Assembly: GCA_016207885.1 (NCBI GenBank) | Contig: JACQZE010000014.1 | Coordinates: 25,724 to 89,723 of the forward strand | Direction of reading: 5' to 3' | Length of the DNA: 64,000 bases | From: Nitrospirota bacterium | GTDB lineage: Bacteria; Nitrospirota; Thermodesulfovibrionia; UBA6902 | Part shown: positions 3,048-55,378 of the stretch, one piece after another | How positions within the stretch are numbered: the stretch's first letter is position 1 | Layout of the letters: each line of letters starts with the position of its first letter | Program-made: the position numbers and the translations under genes | Notes under the pieces: model-generated | Seen by the model: only the letters and a program-made list of their open reading frames with translations | Databases searched by the model: none | What the model was told of the DNA's origin: nothing

Positions 3048-3079
3048 ACAAGTTTAAGATTGACAATTAAAAGGTAAAG

Positions 3080-5387: not shown

Positions 5388-5407
5388 GGATTCAGGAGAT
5401 ATAAATT

Positions 5408-5995: not shown

Positions 5996-6007
5996 CTGTC
6001 AGATACT

Positions 6008-34591: not shown

Positions 34592-34747
34592 AGGACAGCG
34601 GTTTTTTTATAAAGTTTAGTCAGGTCAGGAGTTAAAATTTTTTTAAAAGGAGGGATCAAGGGGCTTACCGGTTTTATTTGACTTACAAACTTTAACAACC
34701 ATGAAACCATAAAGGGCATGGAAAATCAAAAAGGAGGAGTAAAGAGC

Positions 34748-35389: not shown

Positions 35390-35430
35390 TAGCAGGATTG
35401 ATAACAAAGTAACATTAGATGTTAGTTTAT

Positions 35431-35461
35431 TAATGGGGGCTAAGGCCCCCATTAATTTTTT
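35431..35461 (+). terminator. Intrinsic terminator after the 34748 pilin
   Basis: 10-bp perfect stem (taatgggggc / gcccccatta), loop taag, then a T-run. Confidence 0.8.
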
Positions 35462-36228: not shown

Positions 36229-36257
36229 AGGGGCGATGGATCGCCCCTATTTTTTTG
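36229..36257 (+). terminator. Intrinsic terminator after the 35540 pilin
   Basis: aggggcga / tcgcccct stem, loop tgga, followed by T7. Confidence 0.8.
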
Positions 36258-36278: not shown

Positions 36279-36899
36279 ATGAAAGACCAAAAGGGATTCG
36301 GCCTGGCCGAGATCGCGATTATCATTACGATCGTAGTTATACTCTCATTTTCATTACTTAAGGGATGTGAGATGATAGAAGACGCCAAGCTTAAGAAGTT
36401 TGAGAAGAGCGTTCTTAAATGGAAAGAGAGCGCAAAAGATTATTACAATATTAAAGGCCATCTTCCGGGTGATACAAATTCTAATCTTATAATAGGGGAT
36501 GAAGGATTTCCGTCACCGGGAACTACTCTGATACAGAAGGCGGATTTTATCAACAACCCGCCGTCAAACCCCATGGCGGTTGGCAGCCTGAGTTTTTGGG
36601 TCTATTACGGCAATGACGGCAATACAGTCAGGCCGAGAAATGTCCTTGTCATATGCTCTGATAATGCCTGTATGAAAACTTTTGCCAGCAATGAGCTGAA
36701 ATATGTTCAATCGTTTGATACAGTGATCGACGGCGAAGCAGACGGCAAAGCAGGTGAGGTAAAGGCCTTGTCTGCGGTCACAGTCTATGGTTCAGGAGAT
36801 AACAGGGTTGTCACTCATCTGGATACTGCTAATGCAGTTGAGTGGGGTTCAAACAACGGCGTAGCGCTCGTATACTATTTAAAGGGGCGTTTAAAATAG
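36279..36899 (+). CDS. Type IV prepilin-like protein, small paralogue family (G|FGLAE variant)
   Basis: 206 aa with MKDQKG|FGLAEIAIIITIVVIL. Family motifs are GDTNSNLIIGDE, RNVLVICSDNACMK, SFDTVIDGEA and a C-terminal ALVYYLKG. The first O-OTase-like gene follows after 18 nt. Confidence 0.75.
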   Translation: MKDQKGFGLAEIAIIITIVVILSFSLLKGCEMIEDAKLKKFEKSVLKWKESAKDYYNIKGHLPGDTNSNLIIGDEGFPSPGTTLIQKADFINNPPSNPMAVGSLSFWVYYGNDGNTVRPRNVLVICSDNACMKTFASNELKYVQSFDTVIDGEADGKAGEVKALSAVTVYGSGDNRVVTHLDTANAVEWGSNNGVALVYYLKGRLK

Positions 36900-38687: not shown

Positions 38688-38688
38688 T

Positions 38689-40464
38689 ATGATAAAGAGG
38701 ACATATTTTTTGATACTCGGGCTGCTCTTTCTGGTGGTTTTCCACATAACTATCAGGAACTTCGGTTCCCCGCTTGTCCTTCCTGTGGCTTATTTTATCT
38801 GGATAACGATATCAGGGCTTGTGCTTCTCTCAGTGATACAGATATTCAATGAATGGAAGATAACATTTCCGCGCGCTTCCATATATATTCTTATTTTTCT
38901 GCTATTAGTGCTTCAGTCTGCCTTGTTCAACCCTATCATAGACAGCCATGCATTCATATTTGAGACGGCCGGGTTCATTGGCGGGATAATATTCTTCATA
39001 TCCCTGCATCAGTTTGAACTTACGGATGATGATAAGGAGAGACTGTTTTATGTGATATTTATCTCCGGCATGATAGAGGCGCTGATAAGCCTGTTTCAAT
39101 ACTTTAACCCAAACACAGGCATCTTTTTGATAGTTATCCCTGCTGCAAAGAAGATCTATGGCAATTTCCAGCATCAGAACCTTTTAGCCTCGTATCTTGC
39201 GACATCCGTTGTGATATCGTTCTATCTCATAACCGGGGAGATTTTCAAGGGATTTAACAGATGGCTTAAGGCTATGTTTTATCTTGTTGTTCTGCTCATG
39301 TGCTTCATCATCTTCCTCACAGGCTCAAGGGCAGGAGTGATAGAGGCAGGGGCCGGAGTGATTATACTCCTGGCAGCGAGGTATGGGCGTTACAGGGAGA
39401 GGTTGCTCTACCCTGCCGTATGGATGCTGATGATAGTATTTGGAATATCCGGAAGTGTGGCTGCTGAGAAGTATTACTACAAAAGGGATTCCGCGCTCAG
39501 CTCTGTAGGGCATAAGATCGGCATGACGATGGAGAGCGTGGCAGGTGATGAGGTCACGGACGCAAGAGTGCCGATGTATCTTACCGCTGTAAACATGATT
39601 GAAGATAAGCCGCTAACAGGACACGGGCCTGGCAGCTTCGGCAGCAAGTTCATGCACTACCGAAGCAGGCTTGCCAAAGAGCATCCTGAATATCCTTATG
39701 AAGTTGCATTTATATCACATCCGCACAACGAGTTTTTATACAGGACTGCTGAGTCCGGCCTGCTGGGCGGTGCGGGGCTGCTGGGTGTCGGGGTTGCGTT
39801 TATGGTATGCCTTATCAAACTCGGCAGAGAACGGGGCGGAACTTATGCGGCTTTTTTATTTCCGATGGCATTTGATACTCAGGTGAGTTATTCCCTTTAC
39901 CAGTCCATGCCGCATTGGGCGCTCTTTCTGTTTCTGCTTTACCTGCCGTCATCGTACTTCATAAAAGAAGTTAAAATAAGACCTGCCGGACTCCTGAAGA
40001 CGGGCGCATTGACTGCCGCTGCTACGCTATTTGTGGTCATAACCTACCTCTCAATAACAACTCTCAATGCGCAGATAGCTATGAAAAAATATCAGGATCA
40101 TCTTTTAAAGGAAAATATCATAAGACCCGAGCTCTTAATACCGTCTCTCAATAATCTCTATCTCAGACAGATAGGCATAAGGCTTTTGATGGATGCAAAG
40201 CTGAGGGCAGGGCTCATGCGGGGCGACAAAAAGATGCTTGAGGAGTTTGTCGAGTTTTCCAGAGAAGAGCGGAAGGTATATCCGCGTAGCGTGCTGTATT
40301 TGAGGGAGGCGAGGGCGCTCTTTGACCTCGGCAGAAGAAAAGAGGCATACAGACTTCTTGAGGAAGGACTGAGTCTTTATCCGGGCAGAGCTGATCTGAC
40401 AGATACAAAAAAGGAGTTTCTTATTGAAGAGACAGAAGAGGTTATGCGCAGCAGGATGAACTAA
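38689..40464 (+). CDS. Wzy_C / PglL / TfpO-like protein (copy 2)
   Basis: 591 aa, colinear paralogue of copy 1 (GSRAGVIE, SHPHNEFLYRTAESGLLGGAGL). Starts 1 nt after the copy 1 stop. Confidence 0.7.
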   Translation: MIKRTYFLILGLLFLVVFHITIRNFGSPLVLPVAYFIWITISGLVLLSVIQIFNEWKITFPRASIYILIFLLLVLQSALFNPIIDSHAFIFETAGFIGGIIFFISLHQFELTDDDKERLFYVIFISGMIEALISLFQYFNPNTGIFLIVIPAAKKIYGNFQHQNLLASYLATSVVISFYLITGEIFKGFNRWLKAMFYLVVLLMCFIIFLTGSRAGVIEAGAGVIILLAARYGRYRERLLYPAVWMLMIVFGISGSVAAEKYYYKRDSALSSVGHKIGMTMESVAGDEVTDARVPMYLTAVNMIEDKPLTGHGPGSFGSKFMHYRSRLAKEHPEYPYEVAFISHPHNEFLYRTAESGLLGGAGLLGVGVAFMVCLIKLGRERGGTYAAFLFPMAFDTQVSYSLYQSMPHWALFLFLLYLPSSYFIKEVKIRPAGLLKTGALTAAATLFVVITYLSITTLNAQIAMKKYQDHLLKENIIRPELLIPSLNNLYLRQIGIRLLMDAKLRAGLMRGDKKMLEEFVEFSREERKVYPRSVLYLREARALFDLGRRKEAYRLLEEGLSLYPGRADLTDTKKEFLIEETEEVMRSRMN

Positions 40465-42266
40465 TGTTACAGCCACCCTCCTTATCCAGCCGTTACCTAT
40501 TTGTTTTTATATCCATAATATACTTATTTTTAATGCATATCCCGATTCCGGGGATAGGCGGTATAACTGCCACCCCGCAGGAGTATCTTATCTGGGTCGT
40601 GATACTGACAATTATTCTTTTTTCTCTCTTCAGGGCCATAAAAGATAATGCGTTTGTCACACCGTCATATCTCAGGTATTTTCTTGTTTATCTGGTACTT
40701 ATTTTATCAACAGCAATATTTAATCCGATAATGAATACCGGCATCTTTGTAATAAATGTACTGCGGCTATTAGCTGCTTTTATAATCTGGCTCAGCCTGC
40801 ATCAGTTCAGGCTCGGGGAGAAAGAGAAGGAAGATATTTTATTGCTAATACTTGTTTCCGCTGTTATCGAATCATTGATGGTGATTATCCAGCCTTATGC
40901 ATTTACAGAATACATACCGCCTGTCGGCGGGGCGTTTGCGCAGAAGAACCTCTTTGCCTCATGGACAGCAACAGGAATTGCCATCAGCTTGTATTTTATA
41001 ACAACTAAACGGTTCAGCGGATATGAAGATATAAAGAAGGCGCTGATTTTCTCTTCCGCGGCATTGATGTCTGCCGGCCTTATTCTCGCAAGCTCACGCG
41101 CCGGGCTTCTCGGAGCATCTCTTGCCATCATGATACTACTCACAACAAATTGGAGAAGATACTCAGCTATAAGAAAACATCTTGCAATATGGTTTCTGGT
41201 CTTTGCTCTTGGGATCGGGGGAGGGTTTTATCTTTCGGCCTCGTCGTCTCATAGCCTGAAGAAAGAGGCTGAGCAAGGGGTAAGGTGGCTTGCAGATACA
41301 GGGCAGAGGTCATATGCGGAGCGGCTTCTGATGTACAGGACTTCGTATGAGATGTTTAAGCAGAGGCCGATATCCGGTCAGGGTTTCTCAAATTTCGGAA
41401 GTCTCTACATGTACCACCAGGCAGAAGCTGCGAAGGAGAATGCCGGAGACAAGGCGCTCATTCATGATTATATATCCCATCCGCACAATGAGTTTATTTA
41501 TATATTGGCGGAGTGCGGGATTGTCGGGATATCGGCACTTATCATTGCGCTTTTCGGTATCTGGAGGATACTCAGAAGGACAGGTGCAGGGCAGGCAGGG
41601 ATATATGCCGCGCTGCTCATGCCGTTGATTGTGCATATGATGGTTGAGTATCCGCTTAAGTTATCGACTGTACATTATCTTCTGTTTATTATCCTTTTAT
41701 ATATGGTTACATCCAATGAGACAAAGGTTAGGGAGTTGAAGGCAGGCAAGGGCGCAGCAGCGGCTGTCATGGCAATTGCCGGAGCGCTATATCTCGGAAC
41801 AACAGCATATACATTCAGGACATTCGAGGATTATATGAACCTTGTTGCCTTCAATATCAAGTTCAATGAAGAAAAGGGAAGAATTTCTGAAGAGCACATA
41901 AAGCCTGCGATGGAGAATAGATATCTTCGGGAGACTGCTGTGCCAGATTACATGTATAAAAAGGCGATCGCCGCAGCTTCTGATCCTGAGATGAACAAAG
42001 GCTTTATAGATAAATTTCTGACATGGAATGAGGCTGAGAAGCTGAGAAGGCCTGTGATGAGATCGTTTTATACAGAAGGCCTGCTCTTCTATTATATTGG
42101 AAGCCGTGACACAGACAAGCCCCTTTTTTATTTGAATAAGGCTTTGAGTGCTATTAGACAAGGGCTGTATCTTTATCCTAATGACAGATACCTGACCACA
42201 TTAAAAGAGAGGTCATCACCCAAATATGTGACCGGGAGCATGGGCTTGGAGCCACATCCCCGGTAG
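40464..42266 (+). CDS. Wzy_C / PglL / TfpO-like protein (copy 3)
   Basis: 600 aa, colinear paralogue (SSRAGLLG, SHPHNEFIYILAECGIVGISAL). Its start overlaps the copy 2 stop by 1 nt. Confidence 0.7.
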   Translation: MLQPPSLSSRYLFVFISIIYLFLMHIPIPGIGGITATPQEYLIWVVILTIILFSLFRAIKDNAFVTPSYLRYFLVYLVLILSTAIFNPIMNTGIFVINVLRLLAAFIIWLSLHQFRLGEKEKEDILLLILVSAVIESLMVIIQPYAFTEYIPPVGGAFAQKNLFASWTATGIAISLYFITTKRFSGYEDIKKALIFSSAALMSAGLILASSRAGLLGASLAIMILLTTNWRRYSAIRKHLAIWFLVFALGIGGGFYLSASSSHSLKKEAEQGVRWLADTGQRSYAERLLMYRTSYEMFKQRPISGQGFSNFGSLYMYHQAEAAKENAGDKALIHDYISHPHNEFIYILAECGIVGISALIIALFGIWRILRRTGAGQAGIYAALLMPLIVHMMVEYPLKLSTVHYLLFIILLYMVTSNETKVRELKAGKGAAAAVMAIAGALYLGTTAYTFRTFEDYMNLVAFNIKFNEEKGRISEEHIKPAMENRYLRETAVPDYMYKKAIAAASDPEMNKGFIDKFLTWNEAEKLRRPVMRSFYTEGLLFYYIGSRDTDKPLFYLNKALSAIRQGLYLYPNDRYLTTLKERSSPKYVTGSMGLEPHPR

Positions 42267-42517: not shown

Positions 42518-43780
42518 ATGGCCAATATGAAGAATAAGGGTTTCAGCCTGGTTGAATTATCAATAGCCATCGTTATTGTCGGCATCCTGATTGCTATGGG
42601 CATGAAGATGCTGGTTCCGCTGGTTGAGAGGACAAAGCGGTCTGCGACAAGAGAGACGGTAGATGCGGCTGTAGAGGCTGTTATAGGTTTTGCCGAGACG
42701 AATGGCCGGCTTCCCTCTGATTTAGAGTTCCCCGGCTTAGTGAGAAATTCCAAGGATGTATGGGGCAACGACCTTATTTATCTTCATGATGTTAACCTCG
42801 AAGTTGCCGACAGTGTCTGCGCGAGAAACACGACAGATATTTCTTTGAGAACATGCGGGGATTCGGGGTGCAGTTCATATGAAACTACAAGTGATATCGC
42901 ATTTCTCGTGCTGAGCGCCGGGTCAAATCAGAATGTCCAGACAGATACGGCAACGGTTCCTGTCAAGGTCTATACTTTGGGACTGTCAGGTATTGATGAC
43001 TATGCTTCAGGGCTTAACAGGGCTGAGGCTTATGATGATATTGTAGAGAGGGTGGTTTTATCCGAGCTTAGGGTAAAGGCGGGCTGCTTAGGAAGCCTGC
43101 TTAATATCCTGACACTTGAGATACCTTCCGGTTTCGTGCTTTCAAATTACATGACAAATATTTTTGCCAGCGGCGGGGTGCCTTGGGCTGATGATAATGC
43201 ATCACCGGGTGATGATGATGGCTCAGTAAATCCCCCCCCTGATTACAGATGGTGCGTTACAGGAACACTTCCTATTGGCTTAAGTTATGTATGCAACGGC
43301 TCCCTCGCTGTATCTGTATCCTGCGCCTGGGATGCTGATACAGATACAGAGACAGGAACATGGCAGCAGTGCACCAGCCTTGAGATCTCATCAGGAACAG
43401 ATGGGCCCACAGAGGACGGGGCATTCAACCTTCCTGTATTTGTAAGGGATAATGCTGACAACACGGCGCAGAGGACATTCGGCTTGAGCATAAGCCAGGT
43501 AGTCGGGCTGCACATCTGTCAAGACTACAGGGTATGGAATAATGACTCGACATCAAGGTATTTTGTTAATGGAGGCGGCTGTTATCAGATTGCAACCGGC
43601 GGCGAGATAACAACCGTTAGTACCGGCGGACTGCTTCAAAATGGTGAAGTCATTGTGCGGCATACCGGCGGCGGATGCGGGGGTTCTGATACTGCGATAA
43701 ATTATAATCAGGCGATCTTTGCCGATAATAACTCTGATTGCTGTATCAACCATGACCAGTCTGACAAGACCTGTCCCTGA
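42518..43780 (+). CDS. Giant modular prepilin-like protein P1
   Basis: 420 aa with MANMKNKG|FSLVELSIAIVIVGILIA. Shared module motifs are DVWGNDLIY, CARNTTD, AFLVLSAGSNQNVQTD, GLSGIDDY and AYDDIVERVVLSELRVKAGC. An Ig-like LP.G...ISG...V.VRDN segment and a Cys-framed C-terminal module ending KTCP follow. Confidence 0.75.
   Translation: MANMKNKGFSLVELSIAIVIVGILIAMGMKMLVPLVERTKRSATRETVDAAVEAVIGFAETNGRLPSDLEFPGLVRNSKDVWGNDLIYLHDVNLEVADSVCARNTTDISLRTCGDSGCSSYETTSDIAFLVLSAGSNQNVQTDTATVPVKVYTLGLSGIDDYASGLNRAEAYDDIVERVVLSELRVKAGCLGSLLNILTLEIPSGFVLSNYMTNIFASGGVPWADDNASPGDDDGSVNPPPDYRWCVTGTLPIGLSYVCNGSLAVSVSCAWDADTDTETGTWQQCTSLEISSGTDGPTEDGAFNLPVFVRDNADNTAQRTFGLSISQVVGLHICQDYRVWNNDSTSRYFVNGGGCYQIATGGEITTVSTGGLLQNGEVIVRHTGGGCGGSDTAINYNQAIFADNNSDCCINHDQSDKTCP
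43232..43239 (+). repeat. C8 homopolymer inside P1 (codons NPPP)
   Basis: tcccccccct read directly at 43231-43240. Confidence 0.95.
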
Positions 43781-43848
43781 TCTGTCAGACGGCTGATATT
43801 GAGATTTAAAGACTTTAATATGCGATGTCATTTTTCAGGAGGTGTATT

Positions 43849-45375
43849 ATGTTAAAAGACAGGAGAGGCTTTAACATAGTGGAGATGGCGCTGGTTCTTG
43901 TTGTAGTGGGCGTGCTCATTGCTGTTGGTATTGCGATGCTGATACCTTTGACAAACAGGGTGAAGCATAAGTCGACAGAGAAGATAATAGCAGACGCCGC
44001 AGAGGCGGTCATAGGTTTTGCGGATATAAATCACCGGCTGCCGACCGCTGACGAGTTCAATGATGTCTCGGGCAATTTAACTGATACATGGGGGAATCCC
44101 CTTGTTTATATCCCGGATCTGAACCTTGTAATTGAAAATAGTATCTGTCTGAGAAACGTGTCAGATACAACAGTGAATGTATGCGGGGATTCTTCATGCG
44201 CATCTCCCATAGCTAATGCGGATAATTCAGCATTTCTTATCCTTAGTCCCGGCCCGAATCTTAATATTCAGACAGATATATATGGCAGCTCTAACAGTAA
44301 TGGGAACTCAAACTCTAACGGCAACTCTAATGAGAATGAGAATATGAACGGCAACTCAAATACTAATGATAATGATAACTCAAACTCCAATGGCAATGGC
44401 AATGAGAACGGCAACTCTAATGAGAATGAAAATGATAACCTGAACTCCAATGGCAATGGCAATGAGAACGGCAACTCTAATGAGAATGAAAACTCAAACT
44501 CTAATAGCAATGGCAATGAAAATAGCAGCACTGACGCCCTTATAAATGTATATACCGAGGGATTAGCCGGGATAGATGATTACGCCGATGAACTGGACAG
44601 GCCGGAAGCATATGATGATATCGTCAAGTGGGTAGTGCTTCCTGAGCTAAGGCTCAGGGCAGGATGTGAGGGGAGCCTGTTGAGGATACTTGAAAATCCG
44701 CTTCCTTCAGGGCTTATATCTCAGGCATATGATACTGATATCTTTGCCACAGGCGGAGTGCCCTGGGCTGACGGGGCGGATGCTGATACTGCAGATGATT
44801 ACAGATGGTGCGTGACCTCAAGCCTGCCTGACGGCTTAAGCTACAGCTGCAACGGCGCTCTTGTTTCCTCTGCATCATGCGGCTGGAATGCCGAAACCGC
44901 TACAGAGACCGGGACATGGCAGCAGTGCACCAGCCTTACGATATCAGGTTCACCCGCAACAAGCGGTTCTTTCAGCCTGCCGGTATATGTGAGGGATAAT
45001 GGCGACAATACTGACATGAGGTCATTTGCCTTTACAATAAGCCAGATCTCAGGGTTGCATATCTGTCCTCAATACAGGGTATGGAATACTGACCCCGGCA
45101 CTGATACGGATTATCTTATAAGGGCTGGCAGTGAGCCCGGCGATCCCATTCCTTCAGGAGGTGAATGTGATAATGTTCCACTTGATAATGAGATAACCGC
45201 TGATCTCAAAACCCTTATACGGGGAGAGGTGCTGGAGCAGCATTCTACTGCAAACGGTTCCTGTGGGGGCATGGAGGCTCGTTTGACCTATAACCAGGCG
45301 ATAGCATTGGATACAAACGGTGACTGCTGCCTTGATTTTGATAATAATGTTGTTATTGAAAAGATCTGCCCGTGA
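43849..45375 (+). CDS. Giant modular prepilin-like protein P2 with an Asn/Ser-rich insert
   Basis: Start set at ATG 43849 behind CAGGAGG, giving MLKDRRG|FNIVEMALVLVVVGVLIA. Same module as P1 (TWGNPLVY, AFLILSPGPNLNIQTD, GLAGIDDY, AYDDIVKWVVLPELRLRAGC). The C-terminus ends EKICP. Confidence 0.75.
   Translation: MLKDRRGFNIVEMALVLVVVGVLIAVGIAMLIPLTNRVKHKSTEKIIADAAEAVIGFADINHRLPTADEFNDVSGNLTDTWGNPLVYIPDLNLVIENSICLRNVSDTTVNVCGDSSCASPIANADNSAFLILSPGPNLNIQTDIYGSSNSNGNSNSNGNSNENENMNGNSNTNDNDNSNSNGNGNENGNSNENENDNLNSNGNGNENGNSNENENSNSNSNGNENSSTDALINVYTEGLAGIDDYADELDRPEAYDDIVKWVVLPELRLRAGCEGSLLRILENPLPSGLISQAYDTDIFATGGVPWADGADADTADDYRWCVTSSLPDGLSYSCNGALVSSASCGWNAETATETGTWQQCTSLTISGSPATSGSFSLPVYVRDNGDNTDMRSFAFTISQISGLHICPQYRVWNTDPGTDTDYLIRAGSEPGDPIPSGGECDNVPLDNEITADLKTLIRGEVLEQHSTANGSCGGMEARLTYNQAIALDTNGDCCLDFDNNVVIEKICP
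44287..44529 (+). repeat. In-frame Asn/Ser/Gly/Glu low-complexity tract with about three tandem 60-bp units
   Basis: Sequence lines 44341-44400, 44401-44460 and 44461-44520 align in register (for example aatgagaacggcaactctaatgagaatgaa appears twice). The tract encodes SNSNGNSNSNGNSNENEN... Confidence 0.9.
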
Positions 45376-45423
45376 TCTTTGTGTTAACGGCATATAAAGG
45401 ACAAGAGTTTTAAGAGGTATTTC

Positions 45424-47301
45424 ATGAGTTTTATAAAGGATACAAAAGGGATTGCTCTTATTCAACTGGTTCTATTAGTTATATTGATAGGCGTGCTCGT
45501 GGCTTATGGCATCAGGCAGTTAGGGCCGGAGGTCGCAAAGGAAAAGCGGCTCAATACGAAGAATAAAATAGACGCGGCTGTTCAGGCTGTCGTAGGTTTT
45601 GCAGCAGCAAATGACCACCTTCCAACCATTGCTCAGTTTCCCGGGGTGGTAAGGGATCCGCAGGATGTATGGGGGAATGACCTTGTCTACCGTCCTGATG
45701 ACAATCTTGACAATGATGACAGCACTATCTGCGGAAGAAGCACGACCGATACTGTTGTCAATGAATGCGGGGAAGACGGGACATGTGTTTCCTATAAAGG
45801 AAATGCAGATGTTGCATTTTTAATATTCAGCATCGGGGAGAACCTGAACAGACAGACACGCGTTAATGTGGTTGGAGCAAGCGCGACCGTCCAGACATAT
45901 GAGTATGGATTAGCGGGAATCGATGATGATACCGGAGGCATTAACAGGCCGGAGCCATATAAGGATATCGTTGTCTGGATGGGACTTAATGAATTAAAGA
46001 TAAAGGCGGGCTGCCTCGCCGATCAGTTCAAGATAGTCAATAGCTCTCTGCCTTCAGGAACTATTAACCTTCCATATATTATAAATTTATATGCCCAGGG
46101 AGGGGTTTCCCTGACAGACGGGGGCGATTCAGAAACCGAACCTGATTATGAGTGGTGTGTGACAAGAGACCTTCCAAACGGCCTGAATTATCTGTGTAAC
46201 GGCAGTCTCGCTGTTTCTGCCGACTGCCGCCTTTCAACCGCCACATGGAATCAGTGCACAAACCTTACAATCTCCGGGACACCGGATGTGGAGGGTGTTA
46301 CCAATCTTCCCATATATGCAAGGGATGGTGACAGTAACATTACACAAAAGGTTTTTGGCCTGCTCATAAGGCCGACCCCCGGATTGCATGTATGTGAAGA
46401 AATCGATGGCTGGTACAGGGTATGGAATAATACAGGTAACAAACATGATTTTCAACTTACAGGAGAATCATGTTATGAGATTGCAGAAGGGGATGAAATA
46501 ACTGTTGACGGCAGTTCCAGGACGCTTAGCCGGAACGAAGTAATAAATCAATACGCCACATCAAACGGGGCATGCAATAATCTGGCGAATATCGCAAGCT
46601 TTAATCAGGCGGTTCTCGCTGATATCAATGCTGATTGCTGTATAAAATTTACTGACTATGACTCGCCTGATTATGTGATATTTGTAGACAGAACATGTCC
46701 AGGTGCAGCCGATGATAATGACCATGACGGATATACAACCGAAACTGACTGCAATGACAGTGACCCGGACATTAATCCGGGAGTTTCTGACATCGACTGT
46801 GACAATGTAGACGAGGACTGTGACGGCACTCCGGATGATGGTTATGTTGAAACCCCAACGAGCTGTGGAGTGGGCGTATGTGCTTCAACTGGACAGATGC
46901 AGTGCCAGAGCGGAAGCGTGGTGGATACCTGTTCAGTAGGGTCTCCTTCAGAATCACCTGAATCTTCATGCTCTGACGGCTTTGATAACGACTGCGACGG
47001 TTTAACTGATGGTGCAGACCCGAATTGCATTACAGATATCTGCGCGGCCGGCGGTATGACTGTATTAAATAGTACAGGCTCAAATAAGAAATATAAGATA
47101 AATCTCGAAACCAGTTGTAACACATGGACGAAGAACACCACAAATATTGTGGGATCGACAGCTACCTGGAAAATTTATTCAGGGAGTGGCAGCTGCTCTA
47201 CTCTTCTCTGTACAAAAACATATTCAGATTTCAGGGCAGTCGATGTGAACAATAATTGCAATGCAAGGATCACCGGCTCATGTACGCTGGGTGATAATTA
47301 A
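45424..47301 (+). CDS. Giant modular prepilin-like protein P3 (variant signal G|IALIQ; Cys-rich metal-binding-type repeats; duplicated C-terminal module)
   Basis: 625 aa with MSFIKDTKG|IALIQLVLLVILIGVLVA. Shared module motifs are DVWGNDLVY, AFLIFSIGENLNRQT, GLAGIDDD and PYKDIVVWMGLNELKIKAGC. It then carries DHDGYTTETDCNDSDPDINPG...CDNVDEDCDGTPDD...CSDGFDNDCDGLTDGADPNC. Confidence 0.72.
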   Translation: MSFIKDTKGIALIQLVLLVILIGVLVAYGIRQLGPEVAKEKRLNTKNKIDAAVQAVVGFAAANDHLPTIAQFPGVVRDPQDVWGNDLVYRPDDNLDNDDSTICGRSTTDTVVNECGEDGTCVSYKGNADVAFLIFSIGENLNRQTRVNVVGASATVQTYEYGLAGIDDDTGGINRPEPYKDIVVWMGLNELKIKAGCLADQFKIVNSSLPSGTINLPYIINLYAQGGVSLTDGGDSETEPDYEWCVTRDLPNGLNYLCNGSLAVSADCRLSTATWNQCTNLTISGTPDVEGVTNLPIYARDGDSNITQKVFGLLIRPTPGLHVCEEIDGWYRVWNNTGNKHDFQLTGESCYEIAEGDEITVDGSSRTLSRNEVINQYATSNGACNNLANIASFNQAVLADINADCCIKFTDYDSPDYVIFVDRTCPGAADDNDHDGYTTETDCNDSDPDINPGVSDIDCDNVDEDCDGTPDDGYVETPTSCGVGVCASTGQMQCQSGSVVDTCSVGSPSESPESSCSDGFDNDCDGLTDGADPNCITDICAAGGMTVLNSTGSNKKYKINLETSCNTWTKNTTNIVGSTATWKIYSGSGSCSTLLCTKTYSDFRAVDVNNNCNARITGSCTLGDN

Positions 47302-47313
47302 ATACTCCCCTTA

Positions 47314-47346
47314 TCTCCTCTCCCATGACGGGAGGGGAGATATTTC
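47314..47346 (+). terminator. Candidate intrinsic terminator after P3
   Basis: tctcctctccc / gggaggggaga 11-bp stem (one G-T pair), loop atgac, followed by tatttc. Confidence 0.45.
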
Positions 47347-47445
47347 GCAGTCTCTTGGAAAGAGCAGGTTCCACCTTTGACATGAACGGTCAATTTTGCT
47401 ATTCTTGCATTATAATCAGCTTGAAAGATAAGGCGGGAGAAGACT

Positions 47446-47694
47446 GTGTTACTCTTTATTGCATTTTTCCTCATAGGTTACGGCTTTTATTTATTAACGC
47501 ATATCCCTCCTGACGCTTCAGAAGAGATCATTGCCTTGATGGCGATGGCAGGGAAATTCGCCATTTTGATAGGGTGCGCAAAGGTGGCATTCTTTGCGTT
47601 GAGATACAAAACCCGTTCAACACATCTGACCCTGGTAGAGAGGATCAAGGCAAGGTTTACCAAAAATTTCGTTTCCAAGCGTGTAAAGCGGTGA
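47446..47694 (+). CDS. Small two-TM membrane protein (hypothetical)
   Basis: 82-aa ORF with a GTG start about 8 nt after GGGAGAAG, two hydrophobic helices and a basic tail. No family recognised. Confidence 0.3.
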   Translation: MLLFIAFFLIGYGFYLLTHIPPDASEEIIALMAMAGKFAILIGCAKVAFFALRYKTRSTHLTLVERIKARFTKNFVSKRVKR

Positions 47695-47762
47695 GATTCT
47701 GCTAAAATATAGACATGCAACAGGCCACACAGGCCGGTTAATGTATTATTCCTTGAGGAACC

Positions 47763-49043
47763 ATGCAGATAAGAGATAGAGAAAAAGGGTTCAGTCTGGT
47801 CGAGCTTGCTATCGTAATGATAATAATCGGGCTGCTCTTCGCATTAGGGCTTAAGATGCTGGGGCCCTTGGTGAACAGGCTGAAGCATACCGATACCAAA
47901 GAGACCATTAATGCCGCTTATGAAGCGGTAATAGGCTATGCCGCAACACATGATAAATTGCCTACAGTTGATGAATTCAAATCTATAGCTACGACTTCCA
48001 AGGATGTATGGGGAAACGATATTATATACAGGCCTGCTGATGAGCTTACAGTAGATGGTACTGTTTGTGCGAGAAGCACAACCAATTTATATGTTTGTGA
48101 TAAAGATGCGGGATGCGACACAGGTACGGATATAGATAATGTTGCCTTTTTTATTCTAAGCCGAGGAGCTAACTTAAATATCCAGACAGATGTTTTTGAT
48201 GTTGTTGATACTTCGGCTACATCGGCTACAATTCAAACGTATTCACGTGAGTATAATAATACTGATAATTCAGGTATTGACGATTTTTCCGGTTCCGCTG
48301 AGTGGCCTGACCCTGTCGGTACAAGATCCGAGCAATATAAAGATATTGTCAAGTGGATCACACTTTCTGACCTGAGGACAAAGGCAGGCTGTTTGGGCGC
48401 CGAGCTTAAGATCAGCACTACTTCACTTAATGCGTGTGATAATAACTTGCCATACAGTTCAACTGTCTTTGCCGACGGCGGGATACAGTTTGCAGACAGT
48501 GCAGATGCCGGCACTGCCCCTGAATATAAATGGTGCAGGGAGCAGAGCGGTGATTCAGGCCTCATATTTACCCCTGATCCTTTGAGTGTTAATTGTGCAA
48601 GTGAAAGTGAGGCTTTCTATTCCCAGTCTGACAGCATTGTCATATCAGGACGGCCTAATAGCGCGCCTGACTCTTATAAACTCACATTCTATGTAAGGGA
48701 TAATAACGATCCTGTATTAAATGGCCGTGATAAGATTGTAAATAAATCATTTGTGCTCTCAATCGCTCCGGACTGTACCTCTCAGGATGTTGTAAATGCG
48801 ACTGGAAGTAACTCCAGATTTAAGATTGACAGCGGTTCCTGTATATCATGGCCGGATAGTGATATTATGAATATCAGCTACGGGCAAACTGCCCAAATAT
48901 ATGGCGAATCCGGTTGCAGTGGAACGCCATGTGATATAACATATAATGATATTTCCGCTATAGATACTAATGGTGACGGTATTACTGATATGGCTGCCTG
49001 GACTGCCGGCGCCCCCCCCACCTGTACCTTTGTAGAGCATTGA
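47763..49043 (+). CDS. Giant modular prepilin-like protein P4
   Basis: 426 aa with MQIRDREKG|FSLVELAIVMIIIGLLFA and a GAGGAA RBS. Shared module motifs are DVWGNDIIY, CARSTTN, AFFILSRGANLNIQTD, GIDDF and QYKDIVKWITLSDLRTKAGC. The C-terminal Cys-framed module resembles the last module of P3. Confidence 0.75.
   Translation: MQIRDREKGFSLVELAIVMIIIGLLFALGLKMLGPLVNRLKHTDTKETINAAYEAVIGYAATHDKLPTVDEFKSIATTSKDVWGNDIIYRPADELTVDGTVCARSTTNLYVCDKDAGCDTGTDIDNVAFFILSRGANLNIQTDVFDVVDTSATSATIQTYSREYNNTDNSGIDDFSGSAEWPDPVGTRSEQYKDIVKWITLSDLRTKAGCLGAELKISTTSLNACDNNLPYSSTVFADGGIQFADSADAGTAPEYKWCREQSGDSGLIFTPDPLSVNCASESEAFYSQSDSIVISGRPNSAPDSYKLTFYVRDNNDPVLNGRDKIVNKSFVLSIAPDCTSQDVVNATGSNSRFKIDSGSCISWPDSDIMNISYGQTAQIYGESGCSGTPCDITYNDISAIDTNGDGITDMAAWTAGAPPTCTFVEH
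49012..49019 (+). repeat. C8 homopolymer near the 3' end of P4 (codons APP)
   Basis: gcccccccca read directly at 49011-49020. Confidence 0.95.
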
Positions 49044-49109
49044 TGTTTTGTTGTTTTCGGTATTGCCTGCCCTGTAATAAAAAGTAAAATAATCCCGGAT
49101 GTCTAATTC

Positions 49110-49122
49110 TTAGACAATTGCA
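49110..49122 (+). promoter_or_regulatory. TTAG-N4-TTG motif, copy 4 (attcttagacaattgca)
   Basis: Shares ATTCTTAGACA.TTG with copy 2. TATTAT (49141-49146) lies 18 nt downstream, about 250 nt upstream of P5. Confidence 0.45.
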
Positions 49123-49311
49123 CCCTTCCTATTAATCAGTTATTATGAAGTTGTAAATAGGGTTATTTCACCCATGAATATAAGGGATAATACTGAGATA
49201 TTTGATCTGAGATAAACAAAAAGCCCATTGGTTTATAAAAGAAACATATATTTTAAAGCAGGTTAGATTATTTTGCTGAAACATATTTCAAAATAAGCAA
49301 ATTGCTTTATT

Positions 49312-49327
49312 TGGTATGGGATTTGCA
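49312..49327 (+). promoter_or_regulatory. Candidate sigma-54 (-24/-12) promoter upstream of P5
   Basis: TGGTATGGGATTTGCA matches TGGCACG-N4-TTGCA in spacing, with GG and GC both in place. It ends 69 nt before the P5 ATG. Confidence 0.35.
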
Positions 49328-49395
49328 TATCTGTTAATAACATAGTTGTTACATCAATAACAAATGACATTTGATAAGGTAAATAGGAGGTTATT

Positions 49396-50850
49396 ATGGA
49401 TACTTTAAAAAAAGAGAAAGGATTTTCACTTGTTGAACTGGCAATAGTCTTTGTCGTTATGGGTGTGCTTCTGGCTGTCGGTATAAAGATGCTGGCTCCG
49501 ATGCTCGGCAGGGCAAAACTGAATGAGACCGATAAGATAGTTCAGGCAGCAGTGGACTCGATAGTAGGCCACGTTGCGATAGAGCATGAGTTTCCTGATG
49601 ACTTCAAAACAGTTGTGACAACTTCTGAAGATATCTGGGGGAATGATCTTATCTTCCGTGCCGCTAATATGAATCCAATTGATATCTGCAACCAGAGTAC
49701 AACTGATATGTCAGCAACAAACTGTTTCAATCCTGACTGTTCTAATAACGTCATAATTCCAAATGTTGCCCTTGTTGTATTCAGTAAAGGTGAGGACTTA
49801 AATAAGCAGACTGATGAGGCGGATGTCAAGGTTTATCCTAAGGGCACGGTTATTGGGACTCCCCCTAATACTGAGATTTATGATGACGTTGTCAAATGGG
49901 TATCTCTCAATGAACTCAGGGTAAGGGCGGGCTGTTCCGGCGCTCCTCTTAAGATACTTAATAATGAGCTTCCGTTGTGCGGGCAGAACATCTCAGGCGA
50001 TTCCACTTATAAGGCAACCATATATGCAGACGGCGGGGTAGGAAGTTATAAATGGTGCAGGCAGGAAAGCTCCTCTACAGGTTTATTATTTACTCCTAAT
50101 TTTTCTTCATCAGATTGCACGTCTGAGCCTGTGGATAACTGGATGGAGGCTAATAGCCTTACGATCGATGCAACGCCTGTTATTGTGCAGGGCTCTTTTA
50201 ATATTACATTTTTTGTCCGTGACGATGAAGGCAATGTGGCATCCAAATCATTAGTCACAACACTTGATCCTAAATGTTCACCAACGGTTATTATTGCTGA
50301 GACAGCTGAAAATCTTGAGGAAGCTGAGGGTACGCCTGATGTATATGTCTGCCACCAGACATGCACGACTTCATGTGAAACTGTAGCTCACACATGCCCG
50401 TCTGATAACTCTAATAGCAACGGCAACGGCAATATGAATGGCAACTCTTCTGGCTGGGATAGCAATTCCAACTCTAACTCTAACGCCAATGGCAACGGTA
50501 ATGAAAATGGCAACTCTAACTTAAATGCCAATGACAACGGCGCCTGGGGTTATGACGGCTGTGTAGAGTGGACTGAAGAAGTGTGTGCTGCCCCTGTTTG
50601 TACTTCAGGTGATCTGCAGATTGATGTAGCTGATCTTGCGGAACATATGGGACATGGCGATACACTCGGCGCATGTGATTCAGGTATTGTAGATATTGAC
50701 GGCGATAGTGACAACGACAATTATAGCGATAAAGATGAATACGACTGTGGCAGCGATAAAGACAATTCAAACAGTGCACCGCCTGATAGCGACAAAGACG
50801 GATGGTGTGACGGCAAAGACGCATATGACAATGACAACAGCCGTCATTAA
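49396..50850 (+). CDS. Giant modular prepilin-like protein P5 (Asn/Ser-rich tract plus Asp-rich calcium-binding-type tail)
   Basis: 484 aa with MDTLKKEKG|FSLVELAIVFVVMGVLLA and a TAGGAGG RBS. Shared module motifs are DIWGNDLIF, CNQSTTD, VALVVFSKGEDLNKQTD and IYDDVVKWVSLNELRVRAGC. The C-terminal sequence is DIDGDSDNDNYSDKDEYDCGSDKD...DSDKDGWCDGKDAYDND. Confidence 0.75.
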   Translation: MDTLKKEKGFSLVELAIVFVVMGVLLAVGIKMLAPMLGRAKLNETDKIVQAAVDSIVGHVAIEHEFPDDFKTVVTTSEDIWGNDLIFRAANMNPIDICNQSTTDMSATNCFNPDCSNNVIIPNVALVVFSKGEDLNKQTDEADVKVYPKGTVIGTPPNTEIYDDVVKWVSLNELRVRAGCSGAPLKILNNELPLCGQNISGDSTYKATIYADGGVGSYKWCRQESSSTGLLFTPNFSSSDCTSEPVDNWMEANSLTIDATPVIVQGSFNITFFVRDDEGNVASKSLVTTLDPKCSPTVIIAETAENLEEAEGTPDVYVCHQTCTTSCETVAHTCPSDNSNSNGNGNMNGNSSGWDSNSNSNSNANGNGNENGNSNLNANDNGAWGYDGCVEWTEEVCAAPVCTSGDLQIDVADLAEHMGHGDTLGACDSGIVDIDGDSDNDNYSDKDEYDCGSDKDNSNSAPPDSDKDGWCDGKDAYDNDNSRH

Positions 50851-50960: not shown

Positions 50961-53786
50961 ATGTCTAAAACCTCAAACAGGCCTGATATCCTTGTCATTG
51001 GAATAACGCTATTCCTCTCCGGCTTCTGCGGCATCTCCTACGAGGTTATCTACTCCCGTATGCTCGGGAATCTGATAGGCGACCATTTCATCGTCAACGC
51101 GTCGCTTCTGCTCACATTTCTCCTCGGCATCGGCATCGGGACAAAGCTGGCTCACAGGATATCACGCTTCCTTTGGGCGGTTGAGATCTGTATCGGTTTT
51201 TATGCCATAGGCTTTACTTTATTAACGCCGTATCTCGAGGCATTTCTTTATAATATTCTGCCTGCCGGTTCCATCGCTATGAGCATTCTGGCATCAAGTG
51301 TCCTTCTTGCGATCCCTGCCTGCCTCGTCGGTGTGAGCCTGCCTTTGTTCTCTGCATACCTGAAGCGCCTTCGCAAAGGAAATGTCTTTGCGACAACTTA
51401 TATGATCTACAACTTTGGCGCGGCTATAACCGCCATAGTGATAGAGTTCTATCTCATCAGACATCTCGGCATAAGGAACACGGCATTCTTGATAGGAGAG
51501 TTCAATCTGCTCATAGGCCTTGCGCTCTTTCTGAGGCGCAGGCACATCGTCCCGGAGATTGTAAGCGTCAAAGAGGTGGTATATCCTCTGAGAGTGATCC
51601 TGCCACTGATAATCCTGAGCATAGCGAGCGCTGTGTTTCAGCTTCTGGGGCTTAAGATTGCGGAGTTTCTCTTCGGCCCGTTCAATGAGACCTTTGCAAT
51701 GGTGCTTGGGGTGGTCTTGTTCGGCATCGCTTTCGGCACATTGCTCGGCCGGATGCTCGATATAAGTTTTGCATCGCTTCTTTTCTTCAATCTGCTGTAT
51801 CTGACCTTGCTGATACCCGGCTTTTCTTATTTTGTGAAATTGTATGCCGATTATTTCAGCGTGTTCAACCCATTCTCTCCTCTTCTCTGGAAGGTAACGA
51901 TACTCTTTCTGATAATGGGGCCAAGCGCGATATGTTTCGGCGCTGCAATTCCTTCACTTATGAAACAGGAGGAGAATGTTGCAAAGGAGTCGGGGCATCT
52001 GCTCTTTGTTTCGAGCCTTGCCAATGCCGCAGGGTATCTTTTGATGGTGCTCTTCATACACCCTAATTTTGAGTACGGGCAGATAATCGTTCTGATAATC
52101 TTTATGCTGTCAACCGCCTTTTTCATTATAAAATGGCAGGCTAAAAAGGCTGTGGCAATTGTTTGCGTGGCGGCTGTTGCAGGGGTCTTTCTGCTTCATG
52201 CCTTCTGGAATGAGGACATCCTGTATCTCGATTACCTCTCCTTCACCTCTAAAGACAGGTATGCAAAAGAGCTCAAGTCCTATGAAAGCGGGAAGAGGTT
52301 TAAGAAATATGATGAAACCTTTGCGATTAATAAAATAAACGGGCAGGAACTTTTCTTTATAAATGGTTTCACCAGTATCGCGCTCAATACTGCGGCTGAA
52401 TATATAGTCGGGGTGCTCTCAAGCCTCCCGTCACCTTCAACCGAGAGCGCGATGGTGCTCGGCCTCGGAAGCGGGGCTACCGCAGGAACGGTCAGCCGGA
52501 TATTCGACCATCTTGATGTGGTGGAGATAAGCCCTATCATAATTGAGAAGCAGATGCTGTTGAGCAAACATAATTTTGATATTGCTTCAAGGAAGAATGT
52601 CAATATTATAAGCGATGACGGGATAAGGTATACAAAGATCACTGACAGGAAATATGACCTTATACTTAATACAGTTACCTCTCCGCTCTACTTCAGCTCA
52701 AGCAAGCTCTACACAGTTGATTTTTTCCGGGATGTCAAGTCAAAGCTGAAAGATGGAGGGATATACACAACATGGCTTGATTCGAGGGTGGGTAATGACG
52801 GGACGGATATAATTCTGAAGAGCCTGCGCTCTGAGTTCAAGTACTGCTGGGTGGCGATAATGAGGCCGTCATATTTTCTGCTTCTCTGTTCGGATGAACC
52901 GCTGCAACTGCGTCAGGAGGATAATATCTCCTCAAATAAAGGGCTTAAGGATTTCTTCCTGCGAGAGCACAGTATTGATATAAAGACATTGAGGTATGCT
53001 TTTGTTTCTGCGAATGCCTTTGATCATATCTCTGCCGGTTCAAAGGTTCCCCTTAACTCGCTTGACCATCCTGAGCTTGAATTTGAGATATCAAGGCTGA
53101 AGCGCCGCGGCATTCAAAAATTTGTGGACAGCCTGATTAATAATTATTCTGCGGAGAAGGCCGAAAGGGATATCTTTACCGGATTGCCTATTGACTGGTA
53201 TAGCCTGGTCACCTATTATTATCAGATCAACCGTGAATTTCCTTACAGCAAGAGTTTCTTTAAGATGGCAGAGAAACATGTTGAAGGGTTTAAGGATAAA
53301 TTCCCGGAGCACTTTCTTTCAAGCTATCGCGCTGCGGCTTCCGAGTTTCCGTCATCAGACAGAAAAAACAGCCTGGGGAAATGGCTCATTAGTTATGATA
53401 TGTACGCTGAGGCAGAGGCTGTGCTCAGAGAGATACTTAAAGATGACCCCGGCTACCATTATATAAGGTACAAAATTGCCAAAGCAGTTTACTGGCAGGA
53501 GAGGTACGATGAAGCCGAGCTGCTCTTCAATGAAGAACTTAAGACCCATCCGGATGCTGCTGACGCTATGTATTGGCTGGGCCTGACCTATTACAAGCAG
53601 AAAGCCTATGCTGACGCAGTCAAGTGGTTCAGAAAATGTCTTGAGAAAGACCCGCAGTTCGACAATGCCAATTACTATGCCGGGCTTGCGAGTATGGGAG
53701 TTGGAGAGATGGATGATGCGAAGGTTTTCTTTAAAAAAGAGCTGATAGTGGATCCTGAAGACAAGAAGCCTCTAAAATTTCTTTAG
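50961..53786 (+). CDS. Polytopic membrane protein fused to a spermidine-synthase-like (SAM/aminopropyl-transferase fold) domain and C-terminal TPRs
   Basis: 941 aa with about 430 aa of TM helices. The next region reads VLGLGSGATAGTV...LDVVEISPIIIE...ISDDGIRY...YDLILNTVTSP...DGGIYTTW, a spermidine-synthase-type motif order. The C-terminus has TPR repeats (WLGLTYYKQKAYADAVKWFRKCLEKDP). Confidence 0.65.
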   Translation: MSKTSNRPDILVIGITLFLSGFCGISYEVIYSRMLGNLIGDHFIVNASLLLTFLLGIGIGTKLAHRISRFLWAVEICIGFYAIGFTLLTPYLEAFLYNILPAGSIAMSILASSVLLAIPACLVGVSLPLFSAYLKRLRKGNVFATTYMIYNFGAAITAIVIEFYLIRHLGIRNTAFLIGEFNLLIGLALFLRRRHIVPEIVSVKEVVYPLRVILPLIILSIASAVFQLLGLKIAEFLFGPFNETFAMVLGVVLFGIAFGTLLGRMLDISFASLLFFNLLYLTLLIPGFSYFVKLYADYFSVFNPFSPLLWKVTILFLIMGPSAICFGAAIPSLMKQEENVAKESGHLLFVSSLANAAGYLLMVLFIHPNFEYGQIIVLIIFMLSTAFFIIKWQAKKAVAIVCVAAVAGVFLLHAFWNEDILYLDYLSFTSKDRYAKELKSYESGKRFKKYDETFAINKINGQELFFINGFTSIALNTAAEYIVGVLSSLPSPSTESAMVLGLGSGATAGTVSRIFDHLDVVEISPIIIEKQMLLSKHNFDIASRKNVNIISDDGIRYTKITDRKYDLILNTVTSPLYFSSSKLYTVDFFRDVKSKLKDGGIYTTWLDSRVGNDGTDIILKSLRSEFKYCWVAIMRPSYFLLLCSDEPLQLRQEDNISSNKGLKDFFLREHSIDIKTLRYAFVSANAFDHISAGSKVPLNSLDHPELEFEISRLKRRGIQKFVDSLINNYSAEKAERDIFTGLPIDWYSLVTYYYQINREFPYSKSFFKMAEKHVEGFKDKFPEHFLSSYRAAASEFPSSDRKNSLGKWLISYDMYAEAEAVLREILKDDPGYHYIRYKIAKAVYWQERYDEAELLFNEELKTHPDAADAMYWLGLTYYKQKAYADAVKWFRKCLEKDPQFDNANYYAGLASMGVGEMDDAKVFFKKELIVDPEDKKPLKFL

Positions 53787-53831
53787 CCTGCTTCAAATTC
53801 CGGGAAGTGCTGTTATAATAACATTCATATT

Positions 53832-55331: not shown

Positions 55332-55378
55332 GTAGCAGGAAGAATTACTAATCTGAAAAATAGATCTGCCGTTTTTCT

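Follow-up and report, generated by a model that had tools for sequence, protein, structure and literature searches.

The 64,000-nucleotide (nt) stretch of the Nitrospirota assembly GCA_016207885.1 analysed here (contig JACQZE010000014.1, positions 25,724 to 89,723; hereafter the window) contains five neighbouring genes for large prepilin-like proteins, which we denoted P1 to P5. These proteins are probably five paralogous modular type IV pilins of a mannose-sensitive haemagglutinin (MSHA)-type pilus, present as minor subunits at its tip, where they most likely act as adhesive subunits. The module that they share is a complete pilin domain, consisting of an α1 helix and a disulfide-stapled β-sheet head with a GspG-like core, and genes of this type form a conserved part of a cluster encoding small pilins, an MshL secretin, and an MshE ATPase.

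An open reading frame (ORF) check confirmed P1 to P5 as real paralogous ORFs, all on the + strand. They are listed below with positions in the window, as used throughout, protein lengths in amino acids (aa), and the state of Glu5, the glutamate at position +5 of the mature protein (Ig, immunoglobulin; CTD, C-terminal domain).

P1: 42518–43780, + strand, 420 aa, Glu5 present; class III signal and pilin module, residues 1–190 (nt 42518–43087); Ig-like domain, ~191–330 (nt 43088–43507); Cys-rich CTD, ~331–420 (nt 43508–43777)
P2: 43849–45375, + strand, 508 aa, Glu5 present; pilin module, residues 1–273 (nt 43849–44667), then Ig-like domain, then CTD
P3: 45424–47301, + strand, 625 aa, the only one of the five without Glu5 (G↓IALIQ); pilin module, 1–197 (nt 45424–46014), then Ig-like domain; CTD copy 1, ~318–427 (nt 46375–46704); MopE-like, acidic double-disulfide repeats between the CTD copies, ~442–540 (nt 46747–47043); CTD copy 2, ~539–625 (nt 47038–47298)
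P4: 47763–49043, + strand, 426 aa, Glu5 present; pilin module, 1–210 (nt 47763–48392); divergent Ig-like domain; CTD variant, ~338–426 (nt 48774–49040)
P5: 49396–50850, + strand, 484 aa, Glu5 present; pilin module, 1–180 (nt 49396–49935), GIDD loop absent; divergent Ig-like domain; a tail replaces the CTD

The public gene call for P1 begins three codons later, at Met4 (42527). For P2, the ATG at 43849 was favoured over the ORF-maximal start at 43825 because AGGAGG lies 8 nt upstream of it. All five N-termini have the short basic leader, Gly, and hydrophobic stretch described in the first-pass annotation of the sequence. The Pfam model N_methyl matched P1, P4, and P5 above its cut-off, and TIGR02532 matched P1, P2, and P4. 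The N-terminus of P3 (KG↓IALIQ) was matched by neither model and has Gln at +5 in place of the Glu found in the other four. Each paralog has an even number of Cys residues (14 in P1, 14 in P2, 30 in P3, 12 in P4, and 18 in P5), a pattern consistent with extracytoplasmic proteins whose Cys residues are all disulfide-bonded.

An unannotated pilin family with C-terminal cargo

The modules, within the first 180–273 residues of the five proteins, align colinearly with 37 invariant columns, and their identity to the P1 module is 42–51%. Given module-profile E-values of 1e-52 to 1e-69 for the five, we consider the modules homologous rather than similar by chance. The five sequences contain the colinear motifs reported in the first-pass annotation, apart from slight departures in P1 and P5: P5 has CNQSTTD instead of C.R... 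and lacks GIDD, and P1 has NQN instead of LN.

AlphaFold2 models were built from 26–28 family sequences, for P1 at full length (predicted local distance difference test score (pLDDT) 86.7, predicted template modelling score (pTM) 0.49) and for the module alone (pLDDT 81.9, pTM 0.72). Both contain a 52-residue helix (residues 11–62), five β-strands (85–90, 108–113, 121–133, 149–152, and 175–180), and a short C-terminal helix, and the predicted fold of the module is the type IV pilin fold. The shared region had been described as a novel post-signal module added to a pilin, a description that the analysis did not bear out: the α1 helix and β-sheet head are the pilin domain proper. Nor is the module an add-on, because some relatives consist of it alone; five independent short members (187–205 aa) end 0–4 residues from the conserved terminal Cys (C190 of P1).

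When the module profile was compared with the sequences in PDB, matches were confined to the α1 helix of solved pilins (Thermus PilA5, E = 9e-6; also gonococcal pilin and geopilin; GspG, E = 0.67). Restricted to the post-helix part (P1 residues 51–190), the profile had no match among PDB sequences, and this part is covered by no Pfam or NCBIfam model. Because the Ig-like domain dominated the full-length fold search, which said nothing on the head, the isolated module was modelled and searched. Foldseek found no match to the isolated module at E <= 1e-3, and eight of the 27 matches listed (all with E of 1–10), including the top five, were EpsG/GspG. The top matches 4lw9, 3fu1, and 3gn9 had E = 1.2–8.6, probability <= 0.6, and TMt 0.40–0.51, and ~70–73 columns of the module superpose on EpsG/GspG at 1.9 Å. 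The motifs had been regarded as foreign to ordinary pilins, yet DxWGNxxxY is a strand signature of the GspG pseudopilins, and EpsG carries KDPWGNDYQY.

A GspG/T2SSG domain, suspected from the WGN motif, was nevertheless rejected, as Pfam and NCBIfam gave no qualifying match. PF08334 (T2SSG) matched none of P1 to P5 and none of 116 family representatives, and TIGR01710 reached 14–23 bits on P1 to P5 against a cut-off of 88.85, covering only the helix. This family assignment is further weakened by the lack of a PDB match for the post-helix profile, by the Foldseek E-values of ~1, and by the hhalign comparison of 154 family modules with four PDB GspG sequences, in which only the 17 columns around DxWGxxxxY were aligned, with a probability of 8%. 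With these results, no clean mapping onto a known pilin or pseudopilin head was seen, and the module represents a pilin family without annotation whose core fold is GspG-like.

An exhaustive hidden Markov model (HMM) search with the post-helix profile against 1.84 billion cluster representatives found 565 clusters (50% identity) at E <= 1e-3, of which 304 reached E <= 1e-10. They occur in Nitrospirota, Aquificota, Thermodesulfobacteriota, and Campylobacterota. In every case the match falls at approximately residues 50–200 of a protein of 187–1151 aa. Glu5 is kept in 124 of 146 family members. Among the 146 members with intact N-termini, four have no C-terminal extension, 19 have 16–100 aa, 89 have 101–250 aa, and 34 have >250 aa, so that 123 carry more than 100 extra residues; P1 to P5 carry about 230–430 aa beyond the pilin module. 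The existence of module-only relatives beside the extended P1 to P5 supports the earlier suggestion of prepilin-type proteins with grafted C-terminal modules, known as modular pilins. P1 to P5 are a further example of this known design rather than a new kind of protein.

The segment following the module (~195–330 of P1) is a β-sandwich in the AlphaFold2 model, and Foldseek matched it to Ig/cadherin-like adhesin modules, e.g., SraP (4m02, 4m03), with probabilities of 0.99–1.0. In Pfam, He_PIG (PF05345) remained below threshold in P1 (E = 0.27, 12.1 bits, cut-off 24) and had no match in P2 to P5. It reached 28.7 bits (cut-off 24) at the equivalent position of a 681-aa relative (locus L001) and is significant in 32 of the 116 family representatives (best E = 1.9e-29). 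The first-pass guess of a He_PIG-type Ig domain therefore holds at the family level.

Different C-terminal domains had been expected to follow in each protein. This is true of P5 only, whose tail is Cys-rich, Asn/Ser-rich, and Asp-rich; P1 to P4 have one ~90-aa Cys-rich domain in common, which an HMM detected once in P1, P2, and P4 and twice in P3 (consensus YRVWN..G...F....C....EIT......C.....YN.A...D.N.DCC....TCP). Of 173 family proteins, 55 carry this CTD, which in 53 of them forms the very C-terminus; AlphaFold2 models it confidently (pLDDT around 90). Its profile hit nothing in PDB below E = 0.69, Pfam gave no match, and a search of 5.8 billion proteins returned five fragments only, all from the same pilin family.

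Other cargo in the family includes legume lectin, Laminin_G_3, Lcl_C, PKD-like, Big_9, fn3, and RTX domains and MopE repeats. The repeats of P3 scored below the cut-offs of both MopE-type models (PF11617, 20.5 bits vs 27; NF033662, 28.9 vs 41), and the closest of the long relatives (P0032, 1086 aa) has six MopE repeats (190.8 bits, E = 3.4e-57); P3 probably holds degenerate copies of this type. Low-complexity sequence occurs in P2 and P5. In P2, one loop of the pilin head contains an Asn/Ser/Gly/Glu-rich insert of ~83 aa, whose coding sequence is an imperfect tandem repeat (~44317–44522, periods of 30/60 nt), and the Asn/Ser-rich tract of P5 contains an imperfect tandem repeat at 50476–50531 with a period of 18 nt. 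The ortholog of P2 in the most closely related locus (L071, described below) has 423 aa and lacks the insert, and we therefore regard the P2 tract as a recent tandem-repeat expansion. The idea that the Asn/Ser-rich inserts are arrays of N-glycosylation sequons was rejected on the few N-x-S/T triplets seen by eye, of which no count was made.

The MSHA-type gene cluster and its relatives

P1 to P5 lie within a single long co-oriented gene array, the pilus cluster, whose other members in the window are as follows (TPR, tetratricopeptide repeat; GT-C, glycosyltransferase fold C).

30515–33033: response regulator and histidine kinase, upstream of the small pilins
33128–33760, + strand: sp1, small pilin (sp1 to sp5 range from 206 to 223 aa)
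33893–34531, + strand: sp2, small pilin
34718–35389, + strand: sp3, small pilin, major-pilin candidate
35540–36190, + strand: sp4, small pilin, major-pilin candidate
36279–36899, + strand: sp5, small pilin
36918–42266, + strand: three tandem candidate O-oligosaccharyltransferases, PglL/TfpO-like (Wzy_C, PglL_A, and Wzy_C_2, with or without TPR)
47446–47694, + strand: 82-aa hydrophobic ORF with a GTG start, predicted membrane protein, between P3 and P4
50961–53786, + strand: spermidine-synthase-like polytopic protein, 941 aa, with C-terminal TPR repeats
53832–55331, + strand: polytopic protein of 499 aa, no family match, GT-C-like
55379–56914, + strand: PMT_2/ArnT-like GT-C glycosyltransferase
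57192–58541, + strand: MshI-like (PilM/N-like) protein
58538–59092 and 59079–59576, + strand: two small proteins
59558–61204, + strand: MshL-type secretin
61217–62869, + strand: MshE-type ATPase with a cyclic di-GMP (c-di-GMP)-binding MshEN domain
From ~62971, running off the window end at 64000: second MshE paralog, which begins MPPLRLGELLQQKGL, closely echoing the first

The secretin passed the equivalog cut-off of TIGR02519 pilus_MshL (264.1 bits vs 250.2) and stayed below the cut-offs of the GspD model (156 bits vs 351) and the PilQ model. The first ATPase matched PF05157 MshEN and T2SSE, and NF053729 with 52.4 bits (cut-off 38).

The five small pilins are paralogs, identified by N_methyl matches and alignment, and a search with the module profile found no P1–P5 head module in any of them. 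The small-pilin profile matched Neisseria PilE with E = 1e-7, extending into the head domain, and MshA with E = 3.6e-4. The N-terminus of sp1 is degenerate (KKSG↓VSIIF, with neither Phe1 nor Glu5), and the protein is 87% conserved in L071; sp1 could be a second cap without Glu5, or might escape processing as a pilin altogether.

Terminators and promoter-like sites were located by consensus scan. Strong hairpin and T-run terminators follow sp3 (35429–35456) and sp4 (36229–36248), and a sigma70-like promoter (11/12 match, extended -10) lies between the two genes at 35473. These signals suggest that sp3 and sp4 are separately and highly transcribed. No strong terminator was found after P1 to P5 by the same scan. 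A sigma54-type -24/-12 element, TGGTATGGGATTTGCA, lies 84 nt 5' of the P5 start codon, at 49312–49327. Across 18 kb this was the sole match, against a chance expectation of ~0.14, and P5 may have a regulated promoter of its own.

The PglL-like trio sits between the small and large pilin genes and is kept in L071, which suggests, from gene content, O-glycosylation of the pilins by three distinct ligases. Elsewhere among the related loci, a PglL-like gene was found at two Aquificota loci only (L018 and L037), as a single copy directly 3' of the small pilin gene. This pair resembles the pilA-tfpO gene arrangement of Pseudomonas and Acinetobacter. The membrane enzymes at 50961–56914 separate the pilin genes from the assembly genes. 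In 70 related loci (L001–L070), no counterpart of any of them was found, and L071 has the 941-aa spermidine-synthase-like gene; they might serve in pilin modification. We consider the 82-aa ORF between P3 and P4 probably a real gene because it is conserved in place in L071, with 85% identity.

A pattern scan of one genome per species gave 67 loci with module genes, from Nitrospirota, Thermodesulfobacteriota, Aquificota, Campylobacterota (Sulfurimonas), and Desulfobacterota. Two of the Thermodesulfobacteriota loci, L023 and L029, come from cultivable isolates (Thermodesulfobacterium thermophilum DSM 1276 and T. hveragerdense DSM 12571), and each has a small-pilin-like ORF, one module gene, and an MshE-type ATPase gene in succession. 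The usual gene order is small pilin, module protein, MshI-like gene, two small genes, secretin, and MshE, with a secretin homolog in 49 of the related loci and an MshE homolog in 43. At locus L002, genes for T2SSF, an MshN-like TPR protein, and an MshM-like AAA protein (AAA_16+SPOR) adjoin MshE. Related loci mostly have one copy of the module gene, sometimes two, and once three, so that the five copies in the window are the maximum seen.

The closest relative is L071, from a Thermodesulfovibrionia metagenome-assembled genome of another species (GCA_030646035.1), which has the identical array of five small pilins, three PglL-like genes, and five large pilins, gene for gene. P1 to P3 and P5 are 78–84% identical to their L071 orthologs, and P4, the fastest-evolving of the five, is 71% identical. 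Given this array and these identities, the five paralogs are old and individually conserved rather than products of a recent or decaying amplification. Among the small pilins, sp1, sp2, and sp5 are 85–87% identical to their orthologs, sp3 66%, and sp4 70%; the flanking enzymes are 81–86% identical. Thus, no other gene of the locus has diverged as fast as sp3 and sp4; most show 78–87% identity. Rapid evolution is typical of exposed major pilins. Because of the strong terminators and this faster divergence, we take sp3 and sp4 as the major-pilin candidates.

Where a locus has at least two module genes, a recurrent pairing is seen. Ten of 12 such loci encode a Glu5-bearing member of ~290–350 aa followed by a member without Glu5, usually much larger. 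P3 belongs to this second subclade, with the N-terminus G↓(I/V/M/L)AL(I/L)x. A partner without Glu5 was also sought downstream of the module gene at the single-copy loci, and none was found.

Upstream of the pilus cluster, the window contains an Rnf complex operon (RnfC/D/G/E/A/B-like) at 1731–7240 and, at 21038–24853, a NiFe-hydrogenase module that includes Fe-S and FAD/NAD subunits. Both fit an anaerobic, Thermodesulfovibrionia-type host. A 299-aa protein encoded at 19909–20808 on the - strand has a match to the Endostatin/collagen NC10 domain (31.7 bits, cut-off 29.4), which is unusual in a bacterium, and also one to DUF1554.

Tip, shaft, or major subunit

Placement of P1 to P5 at the pilus tip draws on the pairing of Glu5-bearing and Glu5-less members, on the adhesin-type cargo, and on the analogy with modular pilins, which have been proposed to be tip-exposed (Raynaud et al. 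2021, PMC8179133). In type IV filaments, the subunit that caps the tip complex has no Glu5 (PMC10191384). Of the functions put forward in the first-pass annotation, interchangeable or tip adhesins is the best supported. In the mechanism that we propose, a prepilin peptidase encoded elsewhere would cleave each prepilin after the Gly, and the α1 helix would anchor the subunit in the filament growing on the MshE/platform machine. P1 to P5, as low-abundance subunits, would enter first or in low numbers, end at the tip, and probably prime it. P3, without Glu5, would be the probable cap, with the Glu5-bearing paralogs beneath it or as alternatives. The Ig-like stalk would hold the terminal domains outward, where these could bind surfaces, glycans, or metals, and P3 would add repeats of a metal-binding type. 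The shaft would consist of small pilins, with sp3 and sp4 as candidates, probably O-glycosylated by the neighbouring PglL-like ligases.

Several points weigh against this placement. The evidence for the split into major and minor subunits, namely terminators from a consensus scan, divergence rates, and size, is indirect. P3 need not be the cap, because sp1 too lacks Glu5. At most related loci, a single small pilin accompanies a single Glu5-bearing module protein, with no Glu5-less partner; a capped heteromeric tip is therefore not a family-wide rule, and the capped-pair model is confined to a subset of lineages. The CTD has no homolog of known function in the databases searched, and the low pTM of the full-length P1 model leaves the predicted inter-domain geometry undefined. 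The window ORFs that were scanned included no gene for a prepilin peptidase. It should be noted that MSH loci characteristically lack a prepilin peptidase and borrow one from another system (PMC6668835), and we therefore do not hold the missing gene against processing.

We regard it as unlikely that P1 to P5 are minor pilins displayed laterally along the shaft, like Neisseria PilV, PilX, and ComP, with their Ig-like and Cys-rich domains decorating its sides. Four of the five do retain the canonical G↓FxLxE N-terminus required for mid-filament packing. The pilin module ends at a Cys directly before the Ig domain, the undefined domain arrangement in the model makes a flexible linker possible, and a shaft location with such a linker was not excluded by Raynaud et al. 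(PMC8179133). However, the C-terminal cargo of each subunit would be hard to accommodate in the shaft lattice, the recurrent pairing of Glu5-bearing and Glu5-less members suits a capped tip complex better, and the known large modular pilins CofB, TcpB, and GspK are located at the tip (PMC8179133, PMC10191384). The unusually bulky filament subunit envisaged in the first-pass annotation is harder still to uphold: that at least one of P1 to P5 polymerises into thick, Ig-sheathed filaments, with the paralogs forming alternative filament types, seems to us quite improbable. It would be allowed by the full pilin domain and the Glu5 of four of these proteins, five large and five small pilins with two tandem MshE ATPases could serve several filaments, and P5 is preceded by the sigma54-like promoter. 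Against it, the strong terminators follow sp3 and sp4, the fast-diverging pair, and not P1 to P5; it is the small pilins that resemble known major pilins such as PilE; P3 lacks Glu5; and most genomes have one small pilin and one module protein. Moreover, cargo ranging from 0 to >900 aa across the family suits an accessory subunit and not a helical lattice.

It is very improbable that the proteins are not pilus subunits at all, their N-termini serving merely as an anchor or export signal of periplasmic or surface proteins, or the proteins acting as piston pseudopilins like those of type II secretion systems (T2SS). In fold and motif the head is closest to the T2SS pseudopilin GspG, the window yielded no peptidase gene, and the secretin and ATPase models are the sole basis of the MSHA-type assignment. 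Yet the GspG family tests fail, and the secretin passes the MshL equivalog cut-off and fails that for GspD. Family genes lie between the pilin gene and the pilus assembly genes in four phyla, and lectin, Ig, and adhesin cargo is sensible only if displayed outside the cell. Within the adhesive-tip placement that we favour, a more specific arrangement is a tip complex composed wholly of modular pilins, in which P3 caps up to four Glu5-bearing paralogs, each presenting its Ig-like stalk and Cys-rich terminal domain, to form a multi-headed adhesive structure without a PilY1-like protein. We put this forward tentatively, as a doubtful extension.

Comparison with known systems

PilB and PilC of Streptococcus sanguinis, modular pilins with a vWA and a lectin module, respectively (PMC8179133; Shahin et al. 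2023, PMC9934059), share with P1 to P5 a class III signal, a small pilin module, and grafted C-terminal binding modules. Unlike them, P1 to P5 have a pilin module from a separate, unannotated family in which four Cys are conserved and the core is GspG-like, and their host is a diderm with an MSHA-type machine rather than a monoderm with a type IV pilus. Five tandem paralogs, one of them without Glu5, and a ~90-aa CTD without database signature also set them apart. The catalogue of Raynaud et al. (2021) lists >1,200 modular pilins with 264 architectures, and the combinations of IPR012902 (N_methyl) with PF05345 (He_PIG) or with PF13385 (Laminin_G_3) are among the 15 commonest (PMC8179133). Both He_PIG and Laminin_G_3 occur in the P1–P5 family.

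In the T4b pili, the large minor pilins CofB (CFA/III of enterotoxigenic Escherichia coli) and TcpB (toxin-coregulated pilus (TCP) of Vibrio cholerae) are located at the tip and initiate assembly (PMC5207764, PMC8179133, PMC10191384). As in P1 to P5, a large pilin (in CofB/TcpB a pilin domain, a β-repeat/Ig-like stalk, and a terminal β-sandwich) stands beside a much smaller major pilin, and the minimal related loci, with one small and one module pilin, mirror the CofA/CofB and TcpA/TcpB pairs. Unlike CofB/TcpB, to which module profiles run against PDB detected no sequence relationship, P1 to P5 belong to an MSHA-type, T4a-derived machine. The module has the D-x-W-G-N-x-x-x-Y strand motif of GspG/PulG/EpsG and the superposition on their fold noted above; it is ~60 aa longer than GspG, with a Cys-bridged hairpin and the four conserved Cys. 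The P3 subclade resembles the GspK and PilK(PilX) caps in lacking Glu5 and in being usually the larger partner of a Glu5-bearing paralog, while homology of the P3 head domain to theirs was not shown; the extra domains of P1 to P5 are C-terminal, whereas that of GspK is inserted into the pilin sheet (PMC8179133).

The cluster resembles the V. cholerae MSHA genes (mshIJKLMNEGF / mshBACDOPQ) in its MshL-equivalog secretin, its MshE with a c-di-GMP-binding N-domain, and its single-locus organisation without a prepilin peptidase. It differs in its pilin set, in the glycosylation genes inserted in it, and in its hosts, which are Nitrospirota, Aquificota, and Thermodesulfobacteriota rather than Proteobacteria. 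MshM, MshN, and MshG were not found inside the window, which ends within the second MshE paralog. MSH had previously been reported in Gamma- and Epsilon-proteobacteria and Chrysiogenetes (PMC6668835).

New in this analysis are the delineation of the head family, the conserved CTD, the pairing of Glu5-bearing and Glu5-less members, the link to MSHA, and the five-fold expansion with embedded glycosylation genes. A pilin family of 565 clusters that is missing from Pfam, NCBIfam, and PDB is thereby delineated and tied to MSHA-type clusters well beyond Proteobacteria, the group to which most descriptions of such pili refer, in deep-branching anaerobes and thermophiles. The modular-pilin principle, established in S. 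sanguinis and catalogued across bacteria, is extended by these proteins and not altered. The pairing of Glu5-bearing and Glu5-less members offers a concrete model for the construction of an adhesive tip by a simple pilus that has a single small pilin and one or two modular ones. In the lineage studied here, the five-fold expansion together with the embedded glycosylation genes suggests a broadened surface specificity. If true, an all-modular tip would use a pilin-head family found in at least four phyla and a CTD described in no database.

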